A stretch of 64,000 nucleotides of DNA. It comes from Patescibacteria group bacterium (GTDB taxonomy: Bacteria > Patescibacteriota > Patescibacteriia > XYB2-FULL-38-15). Position numbers and translations under genes: made by a program. The notes under the pieces were generated by a model. It ran no database searches, had not been told where the DNA came from, and saw only the letters and a program-made list of their open reading frames with translations. Positions 8,891 through 28,264 of this stretch are shown here, one piece after another; the first letter of the stretch is position 1, and each line of letters begins with the position of its first letter. The stretch spans positions 3,935 through 67,934 of the forward strand of contig JBGSRW010000010.1 of NCBI GenBank assembly GCA_041737355.1, given 5' to 3'.

Positions 8891-9214
8891 CTAGTAGCGG
8901 ACGGTGCACTTCCGGCAGTCAGGAAGGACGGCCTTGGACATCGTGTCCATGATCGCCTCGACCTGGTGCCGGCGTGCCTCTTTGCGCGCCTGGAAGGCGT
9001 TCACGAGCTGGACCTTGAGGCCGGTCTGCTCCTCGTCCGGCACGTCCTGGAGTACGAGCATCGCGTCGAGGTGTCCGGCGCAGAAGGCGAGATCGACCGG
9101 CATCGGGCCGAGCGTGGCGACTTCCTTGCCGGACTTGCGGAGAATGACGTTGCATTCGCAGCCGCAGCCGCAGAAAAGAACCTCGATCGTGTAGGTCAAA
9201 AGTTCGATTCCCAT
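8891..9214 (-). CDS. Cys-rich hypothetical protein (CGCGCEC ... C...C..C)
   Basis: Internal Met with a GGAGGAG RBS. GC-rich. The upstream part of the annotated ORF has no RBS. Confidence 0.55.
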   Translation of the reverse strand: MGIELLTYTIEVLFCGCGCECNVILRKSGKEVATLGPMPVDLAFCAGHLDAMLVLQDVPDEEQTGLKVQLVNAFQARKEARRHQVEAIMDTMSKAVLPDCRKCTVRY

Positions 9215-9326
9215 CTTTTTTCTCCTCCTTCTTTTTCCGCCGGGGCTTTTCGCCCGGGCGGCTAATCCTAATTTCAGGATACCCCTTAATATATCATTTT
9301 TTCGGTCAATTGTCAACCCCCGCGCT

Positions 9327-9355
9327 TTGACTTTAAGCCAGGTTTTTGGGATAAT
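9327..9355 (+). promoter_or_regulatory. Sigma70-like promoter (TTGACT, 17 nt, GATAAT) for the defense-island operon
   Basis: Hexamers with 17-nt spacing, 36 nt upstream of the 9391 ATG. Confidence 0.55.
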
Positions 9356-9390
9356 TGAGGAAAGAATTCTATTAATTTATTTCATAAAAT

Positions 9391-12300
9391 ATGAATGGTC
9401 AATTCGTAAAAGAATATATAGTTACGGTTTCCGAAAAATACAAAACCGGCCAAGCCAAAGAGCACGCTTACCGTCCGGCGCTAGAAAAGTTGTTTCAAGA
9501 TATTACTGGTCTTGAGGTAATTAATGATCCAAAACAGAGCGAATATGGTGCGCCGGATTTTGTTTTTATAAAAGATAAACTCGCTTTGGCTTATGCGGAA
9601 GCTAAAGATGTCAAAGTGTCTCTTGACGAAATTGAAAAAAGCGAACAGGTCGTCAGATATTTTGGTTACTCGAACTTGATTTTAACCAATTATCTTGAAT
9701 TCAGATTTTTTCGCAATGGAGAAAAATATGGTGAACCAATAAAAATTGCCGAAATTATAGATAACAAAATAATACCGGCCGAAAGCAGCACTCATTTGCA
9801 GGATGAAATTGCGGAATTTATCGCTCAAGCTAAAGAACCGATAAAATCAGGCGCTTTGTTGGCAAAAGTTATGGCTGGAAAAGCCCGTCGTATTCGTGAT
9901 AATATCAGTGTTTTTTTGGCAAAGGATGGCCCCGAAAATCAAAGTTTGATGGATATTTACAATGTTATAAGAAAAATGCTTCTCCCGGATTTGGATTATG
10001 AGCGATTTGCGGATATGTATGCGCAAACCGTTGTTTATGGTTTGTTTGTCGCTCGATATCATGATGAATCACCAGGGACATTTTCCCGACAGGAGGCGCG
10101 CGATTTGATGCCGGCGTCAAATCCGTTTTTACGTGAATTTTTTAACCACATCGCCGGTCCATCATACGATCCGCGCATAGAATTTATTGTGAAGGAACTT
10201 TGTGAAGAATTCGGGCATGCCGATGTGTCAGCCATTGTCCATAATTATTATAAAACTGAAAAAGATAATAATCGCGATCCGATAATTCATTTCTATGAAG
10301 ATTTTTTGAAGGAGTATGATCCTAAATCGCGCATGAAATTAGGTGTTTTCTATACGCCATTGCCGGTTGCCCGTTTCATTGTACGTTCAGTAGATGAAAT
10401 TTTAAAAAAAGATTTTAAGTTAGCCGGGCTGTCTGATTCTTCTGAAATCGAAATAAAAAAACAAATCCAAAATAATAAAGTTAAAGCGACCGAACGTGTC
10501 CATAAGGTGCAAATTTTGGATCCCGCGACCGGGACAGGAACATTTCTCAATGAAGTTATTTCACTTGTCCATGAATCATTCGTCGGGCAAGAAGGCAGAT
10601 GGCCAAGCTATGTTCGAGAAGATTTTTTACCGCGCTTGCATGGTTTTGAATTGATGATGGCCTCTTATGTTATTGCGCATTTAAAACTTTCGTCGTCTTT
10701 CAAGGAAACAGGCGTGGATTTGGATGGTACATGGTTAGGCGTCTATCTCACAAATTCTTTGGAAAAAGCAAAAAAAGAAGACGATACTCTATTTGCCGGA
10801 TTGGGATTTGATAAGGCAATTACAGCTGAATCAAAGGCTGCTGGAAAGATAAAGACGGAGTTGCCAATTATGGTAGTGCTAGGGAACCCGCCTTATAGCG
10901 GAGTTTCGTCGAATGAAACGGAATATGCCAATAGCCTCGTGGAAAAATACAAAGTTGAACCAGGCGGAAAGCAAAAATTGCAAGAACGTAAACACTGGCT
11001 GAATGACGATTATGTAAAATTTATCGCCTTGGCCGAGAACATGGTTGAAAAAAACGGCGAAGGCATCGTGGGTTACATTACAAACCATGGCTATCTTGAC
11101 AATCAGACCTTCCGCGGCATGCGCTGGCATCTCATGGATACTTTTGATTCGATATATGTGTTCGATCTCCATGGAAATGCGAAGAAGCACGAAGTTTCGC
11201 CGGACGGCAGCAAGGATGAAAATGTATTTGATATCCAGCAAGGCGTGGCGATTATAATTGCCGTTAAGACAGGAGTGAAAAAGGCCGGAAACTTGGCAAA
11301 AGTGTATCGGGCTGATCTGTGGGGAAAGAGAGAGCATAAATTTGAACGGCTTAACGAACTTTCGATTGAAAACACAAAATGGCTATCGCTCAAACCTCGA
11401 ACGCCCTATTTATTTTTTGCGCCGGAAGGCTCGATGAAACTTGAGACTGAATATCAAATCGGATTTAGTATAAACGAACTTTTTGTTGAAAATAGCACCG
11501 GTATTGTAACTATGGGGGACGGTTTTATTATTGGCGAAGATAAAGAATCGCTTGAAAACAGAGTCGTGAATTTTTTACGCGATGATGATTCAGAAAATAT
11601 ACTGAAAGAAAACTTTAACCTAGGTAAAAATTACGCAAAGTGGATTATCGGCAACAAAAAAGATATCGTAGTTGATCATGATAAAATTACTACATTTTCT
11701 TATCGTCCGTTTGATGATAGATATACCTATTTTGATAACAAGCTTGTCTGGCGGCCGCGTACAAAGATTATGCGAAATTTTGTTAAAAAAAATAACATAG
11801 GGTTGATTGCAACAAGGCTTAATCGTCAGTTAAGTAGCGGTTATTTTTTCTTAACAAGTAAAATTGTAGATTTTCACATATTGGATAGCGCTGGAGATTC
11901 AACATCTGCTTTTCCACTTTATCTTTATTTTGAAGATGGCACAAAAAGTTCTAATCTTAAAAAAGAAATGGTATCAGAAATTGAAAAAATCGTCGGGGAT
12001 GTTGTACCCGAAAATATTTTCGATTATATCTATGCGGTTTTGCATTCGCCGAGTTATCGAGAAAAATACAAAGAGTTTTTGAAAATAGATTTTCCGCGCG
12101 TGCCATATCCGAAAAATGAGAAACAATTTTTCGCGTTAGCCAAGTTGGGCGAGGAGTTGCGGCATTTGCACTTGCTGGAAAGTCCAAAAGTTGAAAAATT
12201 TATCACTACTTATCCCGAGGCGGGAGAGAATTTGGTGGAGAAAGTCGTCTACAAAGACGGCAAAGTTTACATCAACGCTTCGCAATATTTTGGCGGCGTG

Positions 12301-12477
12301 CCGGAAGTCGCGTGGGATTTTTACATCGGCGGTTATCAGCCGGCGCAGAAATGGCTGAAAGATCGCAAAGGCCGCAAGCTCACGAATGCCGATATTGAAC
12401 ATTATCAGAAAATCATCGTGGCACTCGTTGAGACGGATAGAATAATGAAGGAAATCGACAAAAATATATCCATCTAA
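9391..12477 (+). CDS. Type IIG/IIL restriction-modification enzyme (MmeI-like): N-terminal PD-ExK nuclease fused to a gamma-class N6-adenine DNA methyltransferase and a target-recognition domain
   Basis: PD...EAK motif (APDFVFIK...AEAKD) near the N-terminus. Methyltransferase motif I ILDPATGTGTFL. Motif IV VVLGNPPYSG. 1028 aa. Low GC. Confidence 0.8.
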   Translation: MNGQFVKEYIVTVSEKYKTGQAKEHAYRPALEKLFQDITGLEVINDPKQSEYGAPDFVFIKDKLALAYAEAKDVKVSLDEIEKSEQVVRYFGYSNLILTNYLEFRFFRNGEKYGEPIKIAEIIDNKIIPAESSTHLQDEIAEFIAQAKEPIKSGALLAKVMAGKARRIRDNISVFLAKDGPENQSLMDIYNVIRKMLLPDLDYERFADMYAQTVVYGLFVARYHDESPGTFSRQEARDLMPASNPFLREFFNHIAGPSYDPRIEFIVKELCEEFGHADVSAIVHNYYKTEKDNNRDPIIHFYEDFLKEYDPKSRMKLGVFYTPLPVARFIVRSVDEILKKDFKLAGLSDSSEIEIKKQIQNNKVKATERVHKVQILDPATGTGTFLNEVISLVHESFVGQEGRWPSYVREDFLPRLHGFELMMASYVIAHLKLSSSFKETGVDLDGTWLGVYLTNSLEKAKKEDDTLFAGLGFDKAITAESKAAGKIKTELPIMVVLGNPPYSGVSSNETEYANSLVEKYKVEPGGKQKLQERKHWLNDDYVKFIALAENMVEKNGEGIVGYITNHGYLDNQTFRGMRWHLMDTFDSIYVFDLHGNAKKHEVSPDGSKDENVFDIQQGVAIIIAVKTGVKKAGNLAKVYRADLWGKREHKFERLNELSIENTKWLSLKPRTPYLFFAPEGSMKLETEYQIGFSINELFVENSTGIVTMGDGFIIGEDKESLENRVVNFLRDDDSENILKENFNLGKNYAKWIIGNKKDIVVDHDKITTFSYRPFDDRYTYFDNKLVWRPRTKIMRNFVKKNNIGLIATRLNRQLSSGYFFLTSKIVDFHILDSAGDSTSAFPLYLYFEDGTKSSNLKKEMVSEIEKIVGDVVPENIFDYIYAVLHSPSYREKYKEFLKIDFPRVPYPKNEKQFFALAKLGEELRHLHLLESPKVEKFITTYPEAGENLVEKVVYKDGKVYINASQYFGGVPEVAWDFYIGGYQPAQKWLKDRKGRKLTNADIEHYQKIIVALVETDRIMKEIDKNISI

Positions 12478-12478
12478 T

Positions 12479-12895
12479 ATGTACGAAGAAAATGGCAACG
12501 TAATAAATATAAAAGCAGCTAGGTTGAGCGCTGATCCCAGGATAGTCGGATTATTTACAAAGGATAAAAGATTGATAGAAAAAGTTATTTATTGTGTTTT
12601 CTATCCAAAAAAAGAGTTGCATGTTTATCGGGAGAGTTCGGAAGAAAAAGGTGAATATAGTTGCGAGATTTATGATTTTGAAGATGTGGTTCCAAAATTT
12701 AGGGAAAAATTAGGTGAAAAATTTGTCAGAGAAGATGGTGTCGAGAGCCTAGAACAAAATCAGCTCATCAAAAAATTTTTTATTGCGGGCATTAAATTAT
12801 TCAGTTATGAAAATATTACAGAAGAGGATAGAAAAATAATTGAGGAAATTTTTATTTCCGCAAAAAGAAAAGTTGATGAGAGAATTAAAGGGTAA
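12479..12895 (+). CDS. Hypothetical protein (138 aa) in the defense operon
   Basis: Starts 2 nt after the stop of the type IIG enzyme gene. No recognizable motif. Confidence 0.5.
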   Translation: MYEENGNVINIKAARLSADPRIVGLFTKDKRLIEKVIYCVFYPKKELHVYRESSEEKGEYSCEIYDFEDVVPKFREKLGEKFVREDGVESLEQNQLIKKFFIAGIKLFSYENITEEDRKIIEEIFISAKRKVDERIKG

Positions 12896-12919
12896 TTTAA
12901 TTTTTTTTGAAATAAATTA

Positions 12920-14338
12920 ATGGAAATAGACTTTGGCACAATTGCTGATAAAATATCGTACGACAAATACGAAGATATTGACAGCAAGATAAGAGATGAT
13001 TTGGGTTTGGACCAGGCCATGGACTTTATATCCAACAAGATTGCTCCCCAGGTTAATACGAGATTATTAAACGTCGCCTACCTGCCCTATCTTTTGTCCG
13101 GAGTTGATTTCGCCTCTAACCAGGTTAAAATTTATCAGCAAAATAATAAAATAAAGGATCGCGCTCAATTGAGAAGGCGATTTTTATTTTGGCTTGACTT
13201 GTTCGAGTTCTGCTTGGCCTGGACTTTCAAAGAAAATAATGAAAAATCTTTTATTGGAATGCAAAAAAATCAATTTGAAAAAAATATTTTTTTAGAATTT
13301 TTAAATAACCTGGCTAATACTGATCTAAAAAAAGATCTATCCTTTCGGGGTAAATTTTTAACTAGCCGGCTTTCTTACGCTTTTGACAGGCATAAATATA
13401 CTATGCAAATGTTGGGTTTAGTTGAGCCGATGCAGGGTACGCATAGCGTTTATCAGGTCAGTAATGTTGATTGTTTGAAAGATTCTCCACTTTATAAAAC
13501 CATGAGATACCTTAATTACGAGTTATCTCCCAACGAGGTCGTAAAAAGTTTTTATAAAGCGTATTTTGAAAAAAATAAAAAAAATATAACCTTAAAAAAT
13601 AAAAAATTTGGCCGAAAACTCTGGGACGATATTTTATTTGACGAAGTGACACTTAAACAATTTTTGCCAGAATATTTGCCGGCCATAGCCATGAGAGATA
13701 TTAGTTACGATAAGATTATCGCCAATACAATTGAACTCAAGAAAAAAATAGAAACCAGCAAGGGAGAAATTTTTTCTCGAGAGCTTATTTCCAGGGATGA
13801 GTATAAAAAGCTTTTGGGAAAGATTGACTTTTCAGCCAAAAAACTTGATCCGAATGTAGATTTATTTTTAGCTCTGCTCAGGATTCTCAATTATTTTTAT
13901 TATACGCCCAGGCAGATGCTGAATGAAATCAACAGGATGATAAAAAACGATAATTACGCGACCCTGGATAAAGTTAAAAATAGGCTGATAAAAACATATG
14001 AATGGCAGGAGAAAAGCCGGGATTTTAACGATGGGAAAATGACAAAATTTCTCGGGAAAATAGCTGAGATAGATGATACTTTTGGAAGTGTCTTAGATTT
14101 CTTGAAAAGTTTTTATAAAAAAGAAAACCAGCATGATCCGTTAAATTTGATAAAGGTTTTAGGAGAAAGAGTTTCGCGGGTTAAGGGATTAGGTGGACAA
14201 GTTTATTCAGTGTCCAATAACCAGATATCTATTAATGACCAGGAATATAGGGAAAAATTTAAAATTGCTACCACGATTGAGCCTTATTATTCGCGCTTAG
14301 GCATTTTAAAAATGATTTATCGGCAATGCCATGAATAA
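12920..14338 (+). CDS. Hypothetical protein (472 aa) in the defense operon
   Basis: Long ORF with island-typical low GC. No recognizable motif. Overlaps the next gene by 8 nt. Confidence 0.6.
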   Translation: MEIDFGTIADKISYDKYEDIDSKIRDDLGLDQAMDFISNKIAPQVNTRLLNVAYLPYLLSGVDFASNQVKIYQQNNKIKDRAQLRRRFLFWLDLFEFCLAWTFKENNEKSFIGMQKNQFEKNIFLEFLNNLANTDLKKDLSFRGKFLTSRLSYAFDRHKYTMQMLGLVEPMQGTHSVYQVSNVDCLKDSPLYKTMRYLNYELSPNEVVKSFYKAYFEKNKKNITLKNKKFGRKLWDDILFDEVTLKQFLPEYLPAIAMRDISYDKIIANTIELKKKIETSKGEIFSRELISRDEYKKLLGKIDFSAKKLDPNVDLFLALLRILNYFYYTPRQMLNEINRMIKNDNYATLDKVKNRLIKTYEWQEKSRDFNDGKMTKFLGKIAEIDDTFGSVLDFLKSFYKKENQHDPLNLIKVLGERVSRVKGLGGQVYSVSNNQISINDQEYREKFKIATTIEPYYSRLGILKMIYRQCHE

Positions 14339-16100
14339 TTTTTCTAAAAGCAGCAAGGTTAAAGACATTTTTAAAAAGCCCAAAGGCTTTGAGCTGAAAG
14401 AGGCAATTGTCTTTACCTATTCCCTGGAAAGCAGTTTTTTGTATGATGCCTTTTTGCCTTTTTTATGCAATAACAATACCGGCGAATGGATCAGGGATAG
14501 GTCTAACCATCTGAAAGTTTTTATAAACTCCAGCAGCCTGTCGGGCGAATTGCCTTTAAATTTATTAGGCAATATAAATCAGATTAAGACAGCTGAAAAT
14601 TCTTCTTTCCATCCTAAAATTTATTTTTTTAAATATCGAAAAGATAAAAAAGTTTTTTGTCAGATGGTTCTCGGCTCTTTCAACCTGACGGCAGACGGCT
14701 TTAATCAGAATAATGAATTCTACGCCTCGTTGTCAGGCGGGAAGAAGAACAAGTCAGGGCAGAAGCAAAAGCAGAGCTTGATAAAGTTTGTCGAGTTAGC
14801 TTTAAACGCTGCACTGGCGCTCGCTCCCAGCGAACGGAGAGAAAATCTGGCAAGAATAAAATCAATCATTGAATTTTTGGATTGGCCTGATGGGGTAGAA
14901 TTTTATTTTACCGCACCTAAATATTCAGGAAAGGAGATGGGTTTTTCGGGAAATAAATGTATTATGGTTTCTCCCTTTTGGGACGCCGCTGCCATCAACC
15001 GTTTGTCGAAGAATGCCAAACAAGTGTCATTATATTATAATTATCTATCCGAGGCCGACGCAGCGCCTTTTGAGCCGAAAAAAATAGAAGGATCAAATAA
15101 ATTTTCCTGTTTCCAGCTGAACGAAAAAAAATTAGACAAAAAGAAGCTGCACGGGAAATTATATTATTTTGGTGACGAAAAGTTCGGAAATATTTATCTT
15201 GGTTCCGCAAATTGCACGAGCAGGGCGGTTATCAGGGGGAAAAATTATGAAGCCGGCCTAGTTTTTAAGGCTAATTATCAACATTTGAAAAACTGGCTAG
15301 ACGATAAATTTAAAAAAGTTGAATTTCCCCAAAATTATTATCAAGATAAGCTAGCTGAAGACAAAAATAAAAAAGATTATGACAATGTTTATAATATGCT
15401 GGAGGCCGGGTTTTTTGTCCAAAACTCAAAAATGGCTGTAGTTATTAAAATCGAAAAACCCGAGATGTTAAAAAAATATAAGCTTACTTGTCATGACCGG
15501 CCCATTGATGATTCGCCCTTCCAAATCCCAATAGGGGAGACAAAAAATTTACCAGGCTCAATTGAAGTATTGATAAGTGAAACTTCCTACCAGTTACCAA
15601 TATCAGGTACGTATGAGCAAGAGCGGGGACCAATTAAATATCTGGATTATGAGGGCTGGTATAACTTCAAAAAAAATTACATTTCCTTGAAGTGTAATTC
15701 GCCGGAGGATCTGTTGGATTTGTATCTGGATAATATTGCCATTGATGATTTTTTTGAATTTGGCGGAGAGATGATGTTTAACAGCAATTGGCGCGAAAGA
15801 AAATTTCCTTACAAAAAATTAATGGAGCTACTTTATGGCAGCCCTGTTTTGGCAAAAATTAATTTATCTAGCAGATGCCTCAATTTTATTGAAGGCTTAG
15901 CAGCCCGGGACGATTTTGGCGAAAGAAAGAGAGGAGTTTTTTTTGCTGATTTTGAAAATTATGACAATGAAAAAGAATACCGCGATGCCTTTTTTGTTTA
16001 CTGGAAAAAATATCTGAACGAGAATAAAAAATCCCTTGACCGTGAATCGCGGATAAAAGTAAAAAAGCTGCTTGTAAAAATAGAGGCCTTGAGAAAATAA
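14331..16100 (+). CDS. Phospholipase D-family nuclease with two HKD-like motifs
   Basis: HPKIYFF...LGSFNLT and HGKLYYFGDE...LGSANCT, each HxK...GSxN, separated by about 180 aa. About 290-aa C-terminal extension. Confidence 0.7.
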   Translation: MNNFSKSSKVKDIFKKPKGFELKEAIVFTYSLESSFLYDAFLPFLCNNNTGEWIRDRSNHLKVFINSSSLSGELPLNLLGNINQIKTAENSSFHPKIYFFKYRKDKKVFCQMVLGSFNLTADGFNQNNEFYASLSGGKKNKSGQKQKQSLIKFVELALNAALALAPSERRENLARIKSIIEFLDWPDGVEFYFTAPKYSGKEMGFSGNKCIMVSPFWDAAAINRLSKNAKQVSLYYNYLSEADAAPFEPKKIEGSNKFSCFQLNEKKLDKKKLHGKLYYFGDEKFGNIYLGSANCTSRAVIRGKNYEAGLVFKANYQHLKNWLDDKFKKVEFPQNYYQDKLAEDKNKKDYDNVYNMLEAGFFVQNSKMAVVIKIEKPEMLKKYKLTCHDRPIDDSPFQIPIGETKNLPGSIEVLISETSYQLPISGTYEQERGPIKYLDYEGWYNFKKNYISLKCNSPEDLLDLYLDNIAIDDFFEFGGEMMFNSNWRERKFPYKKLMELLYGSPVLAKINLSSRCLNFIEGLAARDDFGERKRGVFFADFENYDNEKEYRDAFFVYWKKYLNENKKSLDRESRIKVKKLLVKIEALRK

Positions 16101-16109
16101 TTTTTTTAA

Positions 16110-18635
16110 ATGGAGCTATTTTCTTTCCAAAAAAAGACAGCTAAGAGGGCGATGGATCTTATGTTTGCTAAGTCTAATCCGACTGATGCGGTTTTTATAA
16201 TTGATGAAGTTGGTCTGGGAAAAACTAAAGAGGCGCTGGAAATCCTCAGAAGAAGCAGGGAGAAACTAAGGGGCAAGTTTAAAGCAATCATCATTACCCC
16301 CTCAAAAAGGCTGATTAGCCAATGGAAAAAGGAAAGCCGGGAATTTAATTCCGAAAAACAAATTTTTAACATTGAGCCAAGCGAGGCGACAAGAAAATTA
16401 TATGAAAGCGGAAAAATAACCCTTATCAACGCCGCCTTGAACTACGACCAAAAAATCAATCTAGCATTTTCCAGCGGCAATGAATTGAAAAATTTCAGGT
16501 CAACTAATTATCTGGAGCGCGAGTATATAATGTCTTTTTTTTCAAAAAGAAAAAGGGGCAAAAAATTTTTCAGGAAGCTGGGCGTTTCTCAAAATCAAAT
16601 TCCGGATGTTTACAATAAATCATTCCGAAAAATAAGCCGTAAAGACATTTCTTTGAGTGAGGCAATAAAAAGCATTAAAGATCAAACAAGTATTTCAGAG
16701 TTTAAGAAAAGATGGTTGGAAAATATAGGGGAAAGGCATAAATTTACTTCCATTGTAGTTGATGAATTCCATAATTATGTTAATTTAGCGGCTAAAAAAA
16801 ATTTAGATAAAATTTCTGGTGAGGAAAAAGAGGTCGATTATGATATCCAAATCTGGGACGAATTTTTCAGGTTGCAGGCGGATGACGGAGCTAGGAAGGT
16901 TAAAAAAATTTACTTATCAGCTACGCCGTTCAAGCCAATCAGATTGAACATCGGTCCTGAAAATCAAAATGACCCGATTTCTTATATCTTGAATGGGCTG
17001 AGTAATTCTTTCACCTATGGAGACCAGGAAAAGCTTGGCAAAAAGATTTTGAATTATAATGAGAATGTTTTAGAGATAAGAAAAAAAATAGCTTATCTAG
17101 CGAATAATCTAGGCAAGAAGGATATTAACGGAAAAGATATAGCAGAAGTTTTAAAAGATAGGGAGTTAATTGAGCTTAAGAGTAAAATAACAATAACTAA
17201 GCGGGAGATTGAAAAAATATTGAGCCGCTATTTATTGAGAAACGAAAGGAAACAAAAGAAATTTACAAGGATAACGATTGCTAAAACAATTAAAATTTCT
17301 AAAGAATTTGATAGATATATAAATCTTTTTGAAGCAATGTATCGAAGTAGATCAGTAGATCAAAGGTATGACGGCCTGCAAACCTATTTTACTTCCGGCG
17401 ATTTTTTTGACCGTTCGTATAAGCGTGAACATTATAAGGCGCTGGAAAATCTAAAGAAGAAAAGTAAATATCTTAAAAAATCTGATTTTAGAAATTATTT
17501 AAAAACGCACCCTAAATTAGAAGAGCTTAAAAAAATAATAAGAGAAGATTTGAAATGGTTCAAGTCTAAAGGCAACCCTCCTTGTTGGTTAGACGTTTAT
17601 AATCCCGAGGGGTATTCTAAGGCGCTTGTTTTTTGCGGCTATAGAGGTACACAGAATTATTTGGAAAAAGAAACAAAAAAGGAATATGAACATAAAGTTA
17701 AAAAAATATTTAAACCCTCAAATGTTTTGAAGAATACAATTGAAAAAATGTTTAAAAATATTACCGGCTATGATGGTATCGAGGAAAAACAGAGGGATAT
17801 CGTAGAAAATTTCTACGGATATCTGCCTTCGTATATTAAGAGATGGGGTTTAAGAAAAAGCGAGAGAGTTACAGCCAGGCAATTAAAGCGGTATATCAAA
17901 AAAAATAAATTGGAAGAAGTATTAAAATATTATTTTGAACGTGTTTGCGATAAAAAGCAGGAAAAATTTTTCGAAAACATTAAGGCCATTACAGAATGGA
18001 CACTGATGCAAAGCAGGCACGGCGTAATTGCCAAGTACGGAGAAATGTCAGGCGGCAAAGGAAAAAGAAGCGGGGTTGAGCGCATAGAGGATCTGCGGAC
18101 TGCCTTTAACTCCCCATTTTATCCCTACATTATGATTTCTACTAATGCTGGTTCGGAGGGGATTAGTCTGCATTCTTATTGCCGCAATGTTATCCATTAC
18201 GAACAGGATTGGATGCCAGCAACAATTGAACAAAGAAGTGGCAGGGTAGATAGGATAAATTCACTGGCGGCAAGGTTAAGAATAGAAGAGATTAAAGATA
18301 AAAATGATTTGGAAAAATTAAAGCATAGTCCCCACGCCGATCATTTACTAGAGCCAGGCAAGCCACAAGTTGAAGTTTGCGATCATTACATGCATAATAA
18401 AGATGTAAAAATAAATATATACCGGCTGGTTATGGAAGCAACCATAGACGAATATATGTATAATAGGGAGAGGGAACGTGCATTATGGGTTGATTTGTTT
18501 GTTGGCGGAGAAGATGTTAACAAAATGTTGGATTCAAGCGTCGGTTTGAATTTCAATATTTCTGATGAGAGCGTTAAATTGGAGTTAGATAAATTGATAG
18601 AGGAAATAAAAATAAAAGTAGGAGAAATAAAATAA
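16110..18635 (+). CDS. SNF2-family (SF2) helicase-like ATPase
   Basis: Motif I IIDEVGLGKT, motif II VVDEFHNY, motif III LSATPF, motif V STNAGSEGISL, motif VI DWMPATIEQRSGRVDRI (SNF2-like DWNP...Q..R..R). Confidence 0.75.
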   Translation: MELFSFQKKTAKRAMDLMFAKSNPTDAVFIIDEVGLGKTKEALEILRRSREKLRGKFKAIIITPSKRLISQWKKESREFNSEKQIFNIEPSEATRKLYESGKITLINAALNYDQKINLAFSSGNELKNFRSTNYLEREYIMSFFSKRKRGKKFFRKLGVSQNQIPDVYNKSFRKISRKDISLSEAIKSIKDQTSISEFKKRWLENIGERHKFTSIVVDEFHNYVNLAAKKNLDKISGEEKEVDYDIQIWDEFFRLQADDGARKVKKIYLSATPFKPIRLNIGPENQNDPISYILNGLSNSFTYGDQEKLGKKILNYNENVLEIRKKIAYLANNLGKKDINGKDIAEVLKDRELIELKSKITITKREIEKILSRYLLRNERKQKKFTRITIAKTIKISKEFDRYINLFEAMYRSRSVDQRYDGLQTYFTSGDFFDRSYKREHYKALENLKKKSKYLKKSDFRNYLKTHPKLEELKKIIREDLKWFKSKGNPPCWLDVYNPEGYSKALVFCGYRGTQNYLEKETKKEYEHKVKKIFKPSNVLKNTIEKMFKNITGYDGIEEKQRDIVENFYGYLPSYIKRWGLRKSERVTARQLKRYIKKNKLEEVLKYYFERVCDKKQEKFFENIKAITEWTLMQSRHGVIAKYGEMSGGKGKRSGVERIEDLRTAFNSPFYPYIMISTNAGSEGISLHSYCRNVIHYEQDWMPATIEQRSGRVDRINSLAARLRIEEIKDKNDLEKLKHSPHADHLLEPGKPQVEVCDHYMHNKDVKINIYRLVMEATIDEYMYNRERERALWVDLFVGGEDVNKMLDSSVGLNFNISDESVKLELDKLIEEIKIKVGEIK

Positions 18636-18642
18636 TTTATAT

Positions 18643-19173
18643 TTGATAAATATTTTAAACGATCGGATTTTTAGTATGGATGTTAATAAAGAAAGAAAAG
18701 TTTGCCGGGATTATTTGGTGGCGCGTAAGAAATTTTTAAAATTTGCTAATAAAAGTGAATTATTGCGGGGCAATGATAATATTATTGGCAGCCGAATTGG
18801 GGAATTTATTGCCTGGGAATTTTTGGATAAACAAAAAAGGAAGCCGAAGATGAATGAGCGAGCTAATGTTGAAGGTCATGATATGGTTTGTAAGGATGGC
18901 AAAAAAATTTCCGTTAAACTAATTAGTCCGGAGAACAAAACGGGAAGAACGACAAGGTTGGGTAAAAATTGGGATGAATTTTTATTAATTATTCTCGGCG
19001 ATAATTATAAAGTAGCTAAAATTGGTCATATCACCCGAAGCCAATTTAATAAAGATAAAAAAATAAGGAGTGCTAACCCGTATACAACTCGATCGATGTT
19101 AGGGGAAAAGGGTTTGTTTGTAAGATCTAGGGGGCGTGTTTATAAAAAGGAAGAAGTTAGTTGGTTAATATAG
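18643..19173 (+). CDS. Hypothetical protein (176 aa), last gene of the defense operon
   Basis: TTG start at 18643 with an alternative ATG at 18676. Basic protein. Weak D...VK pattern. Confidence 0.45.
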   Translation: MINILNDRIFSMDVNKERKVCRDYLVARKKFLKFANKSELLRGNDNIIGSRIGEFIAWEFLDKQKRKPKMNERANVEGHDMVCKDGKKISVKLISPENKTGRTTRLGKNWDEFLLIILGDNYKVAKIGHITRSQFNKDKKIRSANPYTTRSMLGEKGLFVRSRGRVYKKEEVSWLI

Positions 19174-19206: not shown

Positions 19207-19545
19207 ATGGATCCAGCGGTTCGGACAATGGTAAACAAAATGCTTATTGGTTTTTGGCCGATTTTTGTTTGTCTGATAGGAATTTTAGCTATTTTGTTAA
19301 TAGATATATATGTATACCGGTTGGCGAAACCGTGGATAGCCAAGAAAGATAAGATGTTGGTTAGTTTGCTTTTTAGATTTTTGGGAGTGATTGGGTTTTT
19401 TATGGTGCTCGGATTATTGATTTCTTCCCTTGCGGATGCGTGGCAATCATTTTATTGGTATGGAGCGGGATTAGTTGCGGTAATTTTGGGATTTGCATTG
19501 GTGGCGATAGTTTTGAAATATAAATTTTTGAGAAATAAAAAATAA
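19207..19545 (+). CDS. Small membrane protein
   Basis: Three predicted TM helices. Confidence 0.5.
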   Translation: MDPAVRTMVNKMLIGFWPIFVCLIGILAILLIDIYVYRLAKPWIAKKDKMLVSLLFRFLGVIGFFMVLGLLISSLADAWQSFYWYGAGLVAVILGFALVAIVLKYKFLRNKK

Positions 19546-19565: not shown

Positions 19566-19913
19566 GTGGATAAGAAAATTGCCGGATATATTGAGAAACA
19601 AAAATCTCCCCAAAAGGAAATTTTAGAGGAAGTAAGGAAAATAATCTTGAAAACGCTTCCCGGCTGCGGCGAGGAGGCAAAATGGGGAGTTATTGCCTTT
19701 GCCGGCGGAAAATTTTATATTGCCGCCCTCCGGGATTCGGTCAATATCGGTTTTGCCATCGGCGGTTTGGATAAAAAAGAAATCGGCCTTTTTTCTGGCG
19801 GCGGAAAAACCATGAGGCACATTAAGATCCGGACAAAAAAAGAAATTGACGAGAAAAAGTTAAGGAAACTCTTAAAACTCGTTTATAAAAAGGCCAAATG
19901 CCAGCCTTGTTAA
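19566..19913 (+). CDS. DUF1801 (YdhG-like) domain protein
   Basis: GTG start. Pattern typical of DUF1801 (GYIEKQKSPQKEILEEVRKIIL...GVIAF...FYIAA). Confidence 0.55.
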   Translation: MDKKIAGYIEKQKSPQKEILEEVRKIILKTLPGCGEEAKWGVIAFAGGKFYIAALRDSVNIGFAIGGLDKKEIGLFSGGGKTMRHIKIRTKKEIDEKKLRKLLKLVYKKAKCQPC

Positions 19914-20557: not shown

Positions 20558-20800
20558 ATGTATTACTTATACATCCTCGAATGTTCCGATAAAACTTTGT
20601 ACACCGGCATTACGACCGATCCGGCCCGGAGAACCGCGGAGCACAATTCGTCAAAGCTTGGCGCGAGGTATACCCGGACCCGCCGGCCGGTAAAACTCGT
20701 TTATTCAAAAAAATTTAAGAATCGTTCGGCAGCCGCCAAAGAAGAAAGCCGGATTAAGAAACTATCAAGGGATGAGAAATTGGAATTGGTAAACGCATGA
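20558..20800 (+). CDS. GIY-YIG nuclease family protein
   Basis: YLYILECSDKTLYTGITTDPARRTAEHN, a canonical GIY-YIG motif. Confidence 0.8.
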   Translation: MYYLYILECSDKTLYTGITTDPARRTAEHNSSKLGARYTRTRRPVKLVYSKKFKNRSAAAKEESRIKKLSRDEKLELVNA

Positions 20801-21456
20801 TTAAAATAGATAAAATTATCCGTTCCCGGAGAAAAACCCTTGCCCTTATCGTCTCTCCTGATGCGGTGCTCACGGTCCGCGCCCCGCACTGGATTTCCCT
20901 GGACTATATTAAAAGTTTTGTCTTTGAAAAAAGATTTTGGATCAATAAAAAACAGCGGCAGATTTTAGCCCGGGGTGTGGTGAAGAAAAAAGAATTTGTA
21001 GAGGGCGAAGAATTTTTTTACCTTGGAGAAAAATACAAATTAAGAGTCCGGGATTGCGGGGAGATTGAATTGACTGACGATTTATATTTTCCCGCAAAAT
21101 ATCTCCGTGTTGCCCGGGCAATGATGGCTTCCTGGTATAAAAGAAAGACGCGGGAGATAATATTGGAGCGGGCCGGCTTTTACAGCAAAATGACCGGCTG
21201 GAAATTCAAATCGATTTCCGTTAACGGAGCCGAGAGGCGCTGGGGCTCCTGCGGAGCAAACGGGTCAATCAATTTCAGCTATCGGCTCGCGATGGCTCCG
21301 CCCGGGATAATCGATTATGTGGTTGCCCACGAGCTCGCCCATATTCCGGAGAAAAATCACTCGGCAAGATTCTGGGCCAAGGTTGGAATGGTTTTGCCCG
21401 ATTACAAGATAAGGCGGAAGTGGCTCAGGGATAATGAAAGAAATTTAAAAATTTAA
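20797..21456 (+). CDS. YgjP-like metallopeptidase (DUF45/M48-related, HEXXH)
   Basis: WGSC...YVVAHELAHIPEKNHSARFW. Confidence 0.75.
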   Translation: MIKIDKIIRSRRKTLALIVSPDAVLTVRAPHWISLDYIKSFVFEKRFWINKKQRQILARGVVKKKEFVEGEEFFYLGEKYKLRVRDCGEIELTDDLYFPAKYLRVARAMMASWYKRKTREIILERAGFYSKMTGWKFKSISVNGAERRWGSCGANGSINFSYRLAMAPPGIIDYVVAHELAHIPEKNHSARFWAKVGMVLPDYKIRRKWLRDNERNLKI

Positions 21457-26788: not shown

Positions 26789-28264
26789 ATGCTTACCAAA
26801 TCCGATTTTTTAAAGTTCGTGCAGTGTCCCAAGTTTTTATGGCTCGGGAAATTCAGAAAAGACCTGATGGCCCAAGTCGACGAGGCAACCCAGCGGCGTT
26901 TTGACGAAGGGGCCGAAGTTGAGGAATACGCCTACAAATTGTTCCCGGGCGGCGTTTCGGCAAGGGGCAAAAATATCAAGGACGATATCGACAATACCAA
27001 GAAAATTTTGGCGGCCGGCGAGGAAATTATTTTCCAGCCGACTTTTTCAAATTACGACGCCAATCTTTACTGCCGGTCCGACATTTTGAAATTTGATAAG
27101 GCAAGGGGCGAGTGGGATATTTTTGAAGTCAAATCGGCGACCGAAGCCAAGGAAATAAACTACTACGACCTGGCTTTCCAGAAAATTTGCCTTGAGCAGG
27201 AAGGAAAAAAAGTCGGAAAGCTGAATCTTGTTTACGTGAACCGCGATTATGTCCGGCATGGCGAGATCGAACCGGAAAAATTTCTGATCGTGGAAGAGCT
27301 TACCGGCGAGATTTTAAAAATCGGAGAAAAGACGAGAAAGAAAATTCTCGAGGCACAGTATGTTTTGGGAACCAAGGACGAACCGAAAGTCAAAATTCTG
27401 AAGCAGTGCTACGCGCCGTACGAATGCAGTTTTATAGATTATTGCTGGAAGGATATAAAAGAAGGATCTATCTACGACGTCTACGGCGGGCTTTCGGCCA
27501 AGCAGCTTGAAGCTCTGCTCGATCTTGGAATTATGAATCTGGCCGACCTTCCCGAAGGATATGTCAAAAAAGAAAATTATTTGCGCCATCTTGAGGCGGT
27601 CCGGACCGGCGAACAGAAAATTGACAAGGAAAAAATCGCCGGGGAATTGGCCAAACTGAAATACCCGCTGTATTTTTTGGATTATGAGACCTACTCCCAG
27701 GTTGTTCCGCCATTCGACGGCTATCGTCCCTACGAGCAGATGGCTTTCCAATATTCGCTTGATATTGAAGACGCTCCCGGCGAAAAAATGCGCCACGTCG
27801 ATTTTCTCGCCCGCGATCCGGGCGATCCGGAAGTAAAGCTCGCCGAATCTTTAAGCAAGGCAATCGGGCCGGAAGGCACGGTTATTTCCTGGTTCAAGAC
27901 TTTCGAGTCCGGGCGGAACGCGGAAATGGGCGCCCGCTATCCGGAGTACAAGAAATTTTTTGAAAGCGTGAACAAGAGGATGTTCGATCTTATGGATATT
28001 TTCAAAAACGGATATTTCGTCGACAAAGGGTTTATGGCAAGCGCCTCGCTTAAAAAAGTTATGCCGATTATTGTGCCCGATCTTTCCTACAAGGATCTCG
28101 CTATCCAGGAAGGCGAGACAGCCTCAAATTCCTGGCCGAAACTGTTCGACAAGAAACTAAGCAAAGGAGAGCGGGAGAAAATTTATAAAGACATGATTGC
28201 CTATTGCCGTCTCGATACTCTGGCCATGGTCCGGATTTTGGAAAAAATGCGAAGTATTGTGTAG
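26789..28264 (+). CDS. DUF2779-type RecB/Cas4-like PD-(D/E)xK nuclease with C-terminal Cys cluster
   Basis: N-terminal KSDFLKFVQCPKFLWL. EVK motif. CYAPYECSFIDYC cluster. Confidence 0.65.
   Translation: MLTKSDFLKFVQCPKFLWLGKFRKDLMAQVDEATQRRFDEGAEVEEYAYKLFPGGVSARGKNIKDDIDNTKKILAAGEEIIFQPTFSNYDANLYCRSDILKFDKARGEWDIFEVKSATEAKEINYYDLAFQKICLEQEGKKVGKLNLVYVNRDYVRHGEIEPEKFLIVEELTGEILKIGEKTRKKILEAQYVLGTKDEPKVKILKQCYAPYECSFIDYCWKDIKEGSIYDVYGGLSAKQLEALLDLGIMNLADLPEGYVKKENYLRHLEAVRTGEQKIDKEKIAGELAKLKYPLYFLDYETYSQVVPPFDGYRPYEQMAFQYSLDIEDAPGEKMRHVDFLARDPGDPEVKLAESLSKAIGPEGTVISWFKTFESGRNAEMGARYPEYKKFFESVNKRMFDLMDIFKNGYFVDKGFMASASLKKVMPIIVPDLSYKDLAIQEGETASNSWPKLFDKKLSKGEREKIYKDMIAYCRLDTLAMVRILEKMRSIV

Follow-up and report, generated by a model that had tools for sequence, protein, structure and literature searches.

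The window analyzed here, 64,000 nucleotides of the Patescibacteria group bacterium contig JBGSRW010000010.1, contains a compact run of plus-strand genes preceded by a promoter match at position 9327, and three of these genes resemble the Azaca defense system. Azaca, a described system (Millman et al. 2022, as cited in PMC10952713), consists of ZacA (DUF6361), ZacB (a PLD nuclease), and ZacC (a superfamily 2, SF2, helicase). We consider it probable that the cluster is a horizontally acquired defense island combining two functionally separable modules, a Type IIG/IIL restriction-modification (RM) enzyme encoded by gene 1 and a divergent Azaca-like set encoded by genes 3 to 5, with additional orphan genes, probably under one promoter. 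The RM enzyme and the Azaca system are of kinds already known; what is new is a very rare and highly diverged Azaca variant. A preliminary description of the locus had reported six packed genes, and all six open reading frames (ORFs) are found at the positions it gave. Genes 1 and 2 lie 1 nt apart and genes 2 and 3 lie 24 nt apart, genes 3 and 4 overlap by 8 nt, and gaps of 9 nt and 7 nt follow genes 4 and 5. The features of the island are as follows.

9327-9355, plus strand: predicted sigma-70-like promoter, TTGACT-17-GATAAT, 10/12 matches, TG extended (a consensus match alone)
9391-12477, plus strand: gene 1, 1028 aa, Type IIG/IIL RM enzyme, as assigned from its domains
12479-12895, plus strand: gene 2, 138 aa, orphan, 1 nt after gene 1
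12920-14338, plus strand: gene 3, 472 aa, protein in the ZacA position
14331-16100, plus strand: gene 4, 589 aa, ZacB-like PLD-family nuclease
16110-18635, plus strand: gene 5, 841 aa, ZacC-like SF2 (SNF2-related) ATPase/helicase
18643-19173, plus strand: gene 6, 176 aa, orphan
19207-19545, plus strand: gene 7, 112 aa, hydrophobic, probably a membrane protein; GC content at third codon positions (GC3) 0.37
19566-19913, plus strand: gene 8, 115 aa, DUF1801/DUF5655 protein at the distal island edge; GC3 0.46

The motifs that the preliminary description had listed for genes 1, 4, and 5 are all present. In gene 4 they confirm a PLD nuclease with two HKD motifs of the form HxK...GSxN: H94-x-K96 is followed by GSFN at residues 115-118, and H274-x-K276 by GSAN at 291-294. 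Pfam assigns the protein to PLDc_2 and RE_NgoFVII. PADLOC, searched as a set of 5027 defense models, identifies ZacB as the best match of gene 4 (4.1e-30), with the runner-up at 2.9e-5. When gene 4 is paired with the PLD protein of a second locus (L002, described below) and compared by hhalign with a 61-sequence ZacB profile, the two align over residues 9-409 at 99.0% (E 2.3e-18). By tblastn, gene 4 also matches ZacB in ~60 canonical loci. A word-index homolog search retrieved only gene 4 itself, and tblastn against plasmids gave no match.

Gene 5 carries helicase motifs I (GLGKT, 35-39), II (DEFH, 218-221), III (SATP, 270-273), V (TNAGSEG, 678-684), and VI (QRSGRVDR, 708-715). Pfam models ResIII, DEAD, and Helicase_C pass their cut-offs. 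SNF2-rel_dom scores 19.3 bits against a cut-off of 24.9 bits, so the earlier assignment as a helicase stands while the name SNF2 is loose. ZacC ranks first in PADLOC (3.9e-45), followed by PDC-M27C (5.8e-26), BrxHI (1.9e-19), and DrmD (1.5e-18). The pair formed with the L002 helicase aligns to a 48-sequence ZacC profile at 99.9% (E 1.7e-35), with residues 3-727 placed against ZacC 27-1006. Because this alignment spans both lobes and the region between them, we judge the whole motor of gene 5, and not only the common helicase motifs, to be homologous to ZacC. The preliminary description had matched the locus to no described system, Azaca not having been considered. That claim is not supported, given these best matches to ZacB and ZacC and a gene order and spacing that are those of ZacA-ZacB-ZacC. 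In hidden Markov model (HMM) searches, genes 4 and 5 go to ZacB and ZacC and gene 1 to Type IIG enzymes, and genes 2, 3, and 6 have no significant match.

Gene 3 occupies the ZacA position, overlapping the PLD gene by 8 nt in the same layout as in 48 canonical loci, and it is quite likely a ZacA homolog by virtue of its N-terminal domain. Standard models do not detect it. Pfam gives no match even at E ≤ 10, DUF6361 included, and PADLOC (including ZacA), NCBIfam, and PHROGs give none. The word-index search returned only gene 3 itself, tblastn against plasmids returned no match, and a metagenome scan with the alignment of the 472-aa family returned nothing. Searched exhaustively with phmmer, 1.84 billion representatives yielded gene 3 itself and a single relative, P0003 (492 aa, 31% identity, E 5e-54). 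Together with the 432-aa protein of L002, these form a three-member family that aligns to a 77-sequence ZacA profile in hhalign with scores of 43.6-45.6 (E 3.5e-5 to 7e-5, probability 64-72%). Controls made from 100 column-shuffled alignments have a mean of 16.3 (sd 2.6, maximum 24.3), and the reversed alignment scores 17.7. The match is local, with family residues ~24-119 set against ZacA ~44-133. Each member aligns in the same register on its own, at 26.3 for gene 3 (w472), 40.0 for P0003, and 38.2 for the L002 protein, compared with 10.8-27.0 for eight negative controls. Family and ZacA have in common D-[DE]-LG followed by P-x3-T and Y, and then IG ~60 residues on; in gene 3 these elements are DDLGL (26-30), P43, Y54, and FIG (111-113). 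An AlphaFold2 model of gene 3 from a two-sequence alignment (predicted local distance difference test score, pLDDT, 34) is unusable.

For reference, we assembled 80 canonical ZacA loci from genomes that represent species, the validated locus of Bacillus massilioanorexius (L071) among them, and extracted 77 ZacA, 61 ZacB, and 48 ZacC sequences. These canonical proteins are very uniform in size (ZacA 398-447, ZacB 557-629, and ZacC 973-1190 aa) and score 301-557, 535-780, and 1139-1576 bits, respectively, on HMMs built from them. Beyond this set, the arrangement of genes 3 to 5 recurs twice, once in part. On a 2-kb metagenome contig (L001), P0003 is directly followed by a PLD N-terminus 39% identical to gene 4 (E 8e-27). 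The third and more distant instance, found through the helicase search, lies in a Candidatus Goldbacteria metagenome-assembled genome (L002). It encodes a 432-aa protein of no assigned family matching the gene 3 N-terminus (E 8e-5), a 671-aa PLD protein matching gene 4 (E 2e-12), and a 794-aa helicase with 28% identity over 96% of the gene 5 query. The preliminary description had asked whether the 472-aa protein accompanies PLD and SNF2 genes elsewhere. It does so in L001, as far as the start of the PLD gene, and in L002, and what travels together is a three-gene module without the methyltransferase: L002 contains no Type IIG gene or methyltransferase of any kind. Instead, the L002 module is preceded by a tandem pair of Endonuc_Holl (PF10107) genes (165 and 154 aa; 252-1210), which replace the Type IIG and 138-aa genes. 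One of the Endonuc_Holl proteins weakly matches LmuB models (1e-4).

The A-B-C order, with abutting or overlapping genes on one strand, is found in the window, in the 48 canonical loci, in L002, and in a further locus, L004 (4739-11777). L004 is an intermediate Azaca form with proteins of 443, 642, and 1258 aa. Its A protein has no DUF6361 match, yet it reaches 17 bits on the ZacA HMM and 86% in hhalign; its enlarged helicase (1258 aa) scores 1e-139 on the ZacC model. We conclude that Azaca diversity, as judged from these proteins, is wider than present models capture. A metagenome scan with the helicase alignment gave canonical-type or generic helicase loci only, with no new member of the variant branch. 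The variant thus stands at three instances, one of them on a 2-kb contig, and at two clusters among the 1.84 billion representatives, and it is extremely rare. By our profile comparisons, genes 3 to 5 are best placed as a distant sister branch and not within the Azaca family as it is modeled at present. With no ZacA detected, automated annotation would probably pass over Azaca at this locus.

Among the loci compared, one canonical Azaca (L005, 719-13662) has a 1066-aa ResIII/DEAD helicase gene 6 nt upstream of ZacA. A helix-turn-helix regulator and a tyrosine integrase follow, and this Azaca appears to sit on a mobile island.

The second module consists of gene 1 alone. Its product features an N-terminal PD-(D/E)xK nuclease (PDF-x12-EAK, 55-72), a gamma-class N6-adenine methyltransferase (DPATGTGTFL, 377-386; NPPY, 499-502), and, at the C-terminal end (696-1021), a Type_ISP_C specificity domain. 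Pfam finds Type_ISP_C (4e-83), N6_Mtase, and Eco57I, with MmeI_Mtase under its cut-off. The preliminary description was essentially right about the combination of nuclease and N6-adenine methyltransferase and too loose in calling the enzyme MmeI-like. PADLOC returns REase_MTase_IIG, a REBASE-derived Type IIG model, at 5.3e-291, and the Protein Data Bank returns DrdV (7lo5; 7e-45), a solved single-chain Type IIL enzyme of 1029 aa. LlaGI and LlaBIII align only through the halves that contain the methyltransferase and specificity domain, at chain residues 676-1354 and 840-1524, and gene 1 has no helicase match in Pfam. PGAP names gene 1 homologs Type ISP; we reject this class for gene 1 because its polypeptide lacks the SF2 motor domain.

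Homologs of gene 1 are common. With tblastn, 247 plasmid records were matched, 50 of them with at least 80% query coverage and the best at 41-44% identity. Enzymes on Borrelia plasmids, which we take to be BBE02/BBQ67, show ~34% full-length identity. Three plasmid contexts (H1, H2, and H6, from Acinetobacter, Agrobacterium, and Pseudomonas) were the basis for judging whether such enzymes occur alone; their neighbors are mutually unrelated and include no PLD or helicase gene. From its domain content, gene 1 is assigned as a complete, self-sufficient single-chain Type IIG/IIL RM enzyme.

The composition of the island is foreign to its surroundings, and the claim of horizontal acquisition made in the preliminary description is upheld. 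GC content ranges from 0.31 to 0.40 per gene, and GC3 from 0.27 to 0.40 in genes 1-7 compared with 0.53-0.66 in the flanks. The low-GC segment runs ~400-750 bp beyond 19173, to ~19.9 kb, taking in gene 7 and part of gene 8. The window is chromosomal, with valyl-, tyrosyl-, and arginyl-tRNA synthetases, NusA, GroEL, and pyruvate kinase downstream of the island. In a collection of ~15 billion proteins clustered at 90% identity, each of the eight island proteins is a singleton seen on one contig, and the locus is not present in E. coli. The island is horizontally acquired. Its borders show no att-like direct repeats and no adjacent tRNA, the region contains no Rfam element, and the flanking ORFs scanned include no integrase. 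As previously reported, a consensus promoter is predicted upstream of gene 1; the match at 9327-9355 is the sole strong plus-strand match preceding the cluster. The intergenic gaps of the six genes contain no terminator-like sites. Cotranscription of the cluster from this one promoter is probable on these predictions.

Whether genes 3 to 5 belong with Azaca at all can be disputed, and a number of results weigh against our assignment. On the ZacA, ZacB, and ZacC HMMs, the window proteins score -0.3, 75.5, and 78.5 bits, far outside the canonical range, and gene 3 fails the DUF6361 and PADLOC models as well as our own. Taken alone, gene 3 is marginal against ZacA (score 26.3, E 0.01, with the top negative control at 27.0). 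No alignment was obtained for the C-terminal ~350 residues of gene 3, ~180 of gene 4, and the last ~115 of gene 5. Finally, any target preference is extrapolated by analogy from a relative only ~20-24% identical. These points can be read to mean that genes 3 to 5 are a separate PLD-helicase family that has only ancient catalytic cores in common with Azaca, in which gene 3 would be a non-homologous replacement of ZacA with a different trigger or target. Bit scores 7- to 15-fold below those of any canonical member would then be expected, as would the missing DUF6361 match, the marginal alignment of gene 3 by itself, C-terminal regions that cannot be aligned in any of the three proteins, and a helicase ~250 residues shorter than canonical ZacC (841 vs 973-1190 aa, the difference lying between motifs III and IV). 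We find this unlikely. ZacB and ZacC lead the 5027 defense models by a wide margin, the gene 5 alignment covers the entire motor including the inter-lobe region, and the three-gene order and overlaps are identical to those of Azaca. Moreover, three independent A members align to the same N-terminal motif of ZacA, and L004 is intermediate between the variant and canonical forms. A diverged branch related to Azaca is the assignment we retain.

A further question is whether the RM enzyme and the Azaca-like genes work together. Relatives of genes 1, 2, and 6 were sought by tblastn within 10 kb of Azaca-type loci and of further loci and were found at none (0/85 and 0/83). Among the 108 large neighbors of the 48 canonical Azaca loci, the most frequent Pfam families are those usual in defense islands, namely ResIII (8), SWI2_SNF2 (7), N6_Mtase (3, HsdM type I), and GmrSD (2); these neighborhoods contain assorted restriction genes and no conserved methyltransferase partner. 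With only three variant instances, co-occurrence statistics are not possible for the branch itself. On present evidence, the pairing is an ordinary defense-island arrangement. The preliminary description had instead proposed that all six genes make up one new DISARM-like or RM-coupled system. In an integrated, undescribed system with DISARM-like logic, the Type IIG enzyme would provide an N6-methyladenine (m6A) self-mark and site recognition, the PLD nuclease, helicase, and 472-aa protein would form the effector, and genes 2 and 6 would serve as adaptors. The tight spacing of the RM, 138-aa, and A genes (1 nt, 24 nt) suits such a system too and counts against separable modules, as do gaps of 1-24 nt or overlaps throughout, one strong promoter without intergenic terminators, and a foreign GC3 that is uniform across genes 1-7. 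A methyltransferase, a PLD protein, and an SNF2-like helicase also recall DrmMI, DrmC, and DrmD, and PADLOC returns weak DrmC (1.1e-4) and DrmD matches. The proposal nevertheless appears improbable and is not sustained. L002 has the A-B-C genes without a methyltransferase, homologs of gene 1 occur by themselves in the three plasmid contexts that were inspected, and genes 2 and 6 are not conserved beside the module, as no relative of genes 1, 2, or 6 lies beside ZacB or ZacC in the 85 and 83 loci. Purified ZacABC cuts T4 DNA in vitro without a methyltransferase (bioRxiv 10.1101/2025.07.10.664194). DrmA and DrmB (DUF1998) are missing, and NCBIfam DISARM_DrmD reaches 77.1 bits against a 610-bit cut-off.

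There is likewise little chance, in our estimation, that a functional link within the operon joins the Type IIG enzyme and the Azaca-like module into a new composite system with the orphans as adaptors. In that event, m6A deposited by gene 1 may license self DNA against the PLD-helicase effector, or targets may be handed over, with unmodified DNA falling to the RM enzyme and modified DNA to the ZacABC-like complex; the gene 3 family would then constitute a second ZacA family, previously unrecognized. A split Type ISP enzyme, in which the motor-less gene 1 would use the SF2 ATPase of gene 5 as a translocase in trans, is very improbable. It would account for the strong Type_ISP_C match in gene 1, for the alignment with LlaGI and LlaBIII over the methyltransferase and specificity half only, and for an SF2 ATPase within the same operon. 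The nearest relatives of gene 5 are, however, ZacC proteins, and this helicase travels with PLD and A genes and not with Type IIG enzymes, whereas the motor-less 1028-aa architecture is common, occurs alone in the contexts inspected, and has the length of DrdV. We therefore keep to two separable modules, a self-sufficient RM enzyme and a divergent Azaca-like set.

Of the orphan genes, gene 2 (138 aa) has no match in Pfam, PADLOC, NCBIfam, PHROGs, or the Protein Data Bank and no plasmid match by tblastn. Gene 6 (176 aa) has no significant match in the same five resources, in plasmids, or in phages. Below threshold, it matches PADLOC mREase_II, a methyl-directed Type II restriction endonuclease (E 0.0066), and Pfam DUF6998 (E 0.031). 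Together with the pattern GHD-x11-SVK at residues 78-92, these are a weak hint that it may be a small PD-(D/E)xK nuclease. Gene 6 has two possible starts, TTG at 18643 (176 aa) and ATG at 18676 (165 aa), and the public gene call has the shorter form. The AlphaFold2 model of the 165-aa form (pLDDT 40) is unreliable. Genes 2 and 6 show no convincing relation to the small genes next to the module in L001 and L002 (the upstream fragment and the Endonuc_Holl genes, respectively); a shuffle test of the L001 fragment with gene 2 gives p ~0.01, which is not significant after six comparisons. Gene 7 matches no Pfam or PADLOC family, and gene 8 matches DUF1801 (5.3e-14) and DUF5655 (9.7e-14).

Several features in and around the island are recorded here as observations in their own right. 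No recognizable Shine-Dalgarno sequence is present in the 25 nt upstream of any start in genes 1-8. The leaders are A/T-rich (e.g., aaataaatta ATG), suggesting that initiation in the donor or host lineage does not depend on Shine-Dalgarno leaders. Abutting the island is a minus-strand ORF of high GC content (0.58) at 8891-9316, without a Pfam match. It has its own promoter match (TTGACA-17-TATATT, 11/12, at 9316-9288), divergent from the island promoter. Past the island, an 80-aa GIY-YIG nuclease-domain protein and a 219-aa YgjP-like metallopeptidase are encoded with a 4-nt overlap at 20558-21456. YgjP-like proteins are frequent neighbors of restriction systems, and given this neighbor the defense island may extend further downstream. 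A 491-aa DUF2779 protein (1e-36) is encoded at 26789-28264, ~7 kb downstream of the island.

A working model for the two modules follows from their relatives. The specificity domain of gene 1 would read an asymmetric DNA site, its NPPY methyltransferase would mark host adenines, and its N-terminal PD-(D/E)xK nuclease would cut unmethylated incoming DNA, the mode of action established for single-chain Type IIG/IIL enzymes. For genes 3 to 5, the guide is the Azaca system of Bacillus massilioanorexius. In vitro DNA cleavage by Azaca needs ZacA, ZacB, and ZacC as well as the Walker A motif of ZacC; T4 DNA containing glucosyl-hydroxymethylcytosine is the preferred substrate of the complex; and ZacA is required, yet point mutations of its conserved residues had no in vitro effect (bioRxiv 10.1101/2025.07.10.664194). 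By analogy, the products of genes 3 to 5 may form a complex in which the gene 3 protein would be a ZacA-like scaffold or sensor and the SF2 ATPase would drive or license the PLD nuclease, leading to degradation of phage DNA. The target may be DNA with bulky base modifications that escapes classical restriction, and gene 1, an enzyme blocked by modification, and genes 3 to 5 could then cover complementary classes of phage DNA, if one distant relative is a sound guide. Complex formation, ATP dependence, and target preference of the gene 3 to 5 products are all inferred from that relative.

Azaca is among the least understood nuclease-helicase defense systems, and the variant branch may help to dissect it. 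The branch appears to keep the N-terminal ~100 residues of ZacA, to shorten the ZacC motor, and to replace three C-terminal regions. What remains is a candidate minimal conserved core, and the branch offers a natural comparison for locating the parts responsible for target specificity. Because the DUF6361 and PADLOC ZacA models miss the branch, Azaca-like systems are probably under-counted by automated annotation. That the module here shares an operon with a Type IIG enzyme also makes it a testable case of layered restriction.

Compared with known systems, gene 1 is closest to enzymes of the DrdV/MmeI type, with the same architecture and nearly the same size (1028 vs 1029 aa for DrdV). The phmmer alignment with DrdV begins only at residue ~300, however, and gene 1 is a singleton at 90% identity. 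With the Type ISP enzymes LlaGI and LlaBIII it shares a homologous Type_ISP_C specificity domain and methyltransferase (about 1e-40); the defining SF2 motor is not in gene 1, and the solved LlaGI and LlaBIII chains are longer (1406-1578 vs 1028 aa).

Class 1 DISARM and the cluster have a PLD nuclease, an SNF2-related ATPase, and an adenine methyltransferase in common, although the methyltransferase of gene 1 forms one polypeptide with a nuclease and a specificity domain. The locus had previously been set apart from DISARM, BREX, and Mokosh, and this separation is supported. DISARM class 1 is rejected, as DUF1998 is found in 0/8 ORFs and there is no DrmA; the DrmA model hits gene 5 through the generic helicase motif alone (PADLOC 3.6e-13), below ZacC. 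BREX is rejected on a BREX_6 PglX match of 14 bits (E 0.0066) against a 900-bit cut-off and the lack of a PglZ or BrxC match in any ORF. Mokosh, which pairs SF1 RNA-helicase-like MkoA/MkoC with PLD, is rejected as well, since no Mokosh PADLOC model is matched and the helicase is SF2 and ZacC-like.

The closest counterpart of genes 3 to 5 is Azaca. Both systems present an A protein, a two-HKD PLD nuclease, and an SF2 helicase in this order, encoded by overlapping or abutting genes, and the gene 3 family aligns with the N-terminal D-[DE]-LG...P...T...Y...IG region of ZacA. Divergence is extreme in genes 4 and 5 (75 and 78 bits, compared with at least 535 and at least 1139 in members), gene 3 is longer (472 vs 398-447 aa), and the C-terminal domains of genes 3 to 5 are not alignable. 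A Type IIG RM gene and two orphans accompany the module in its operon here.

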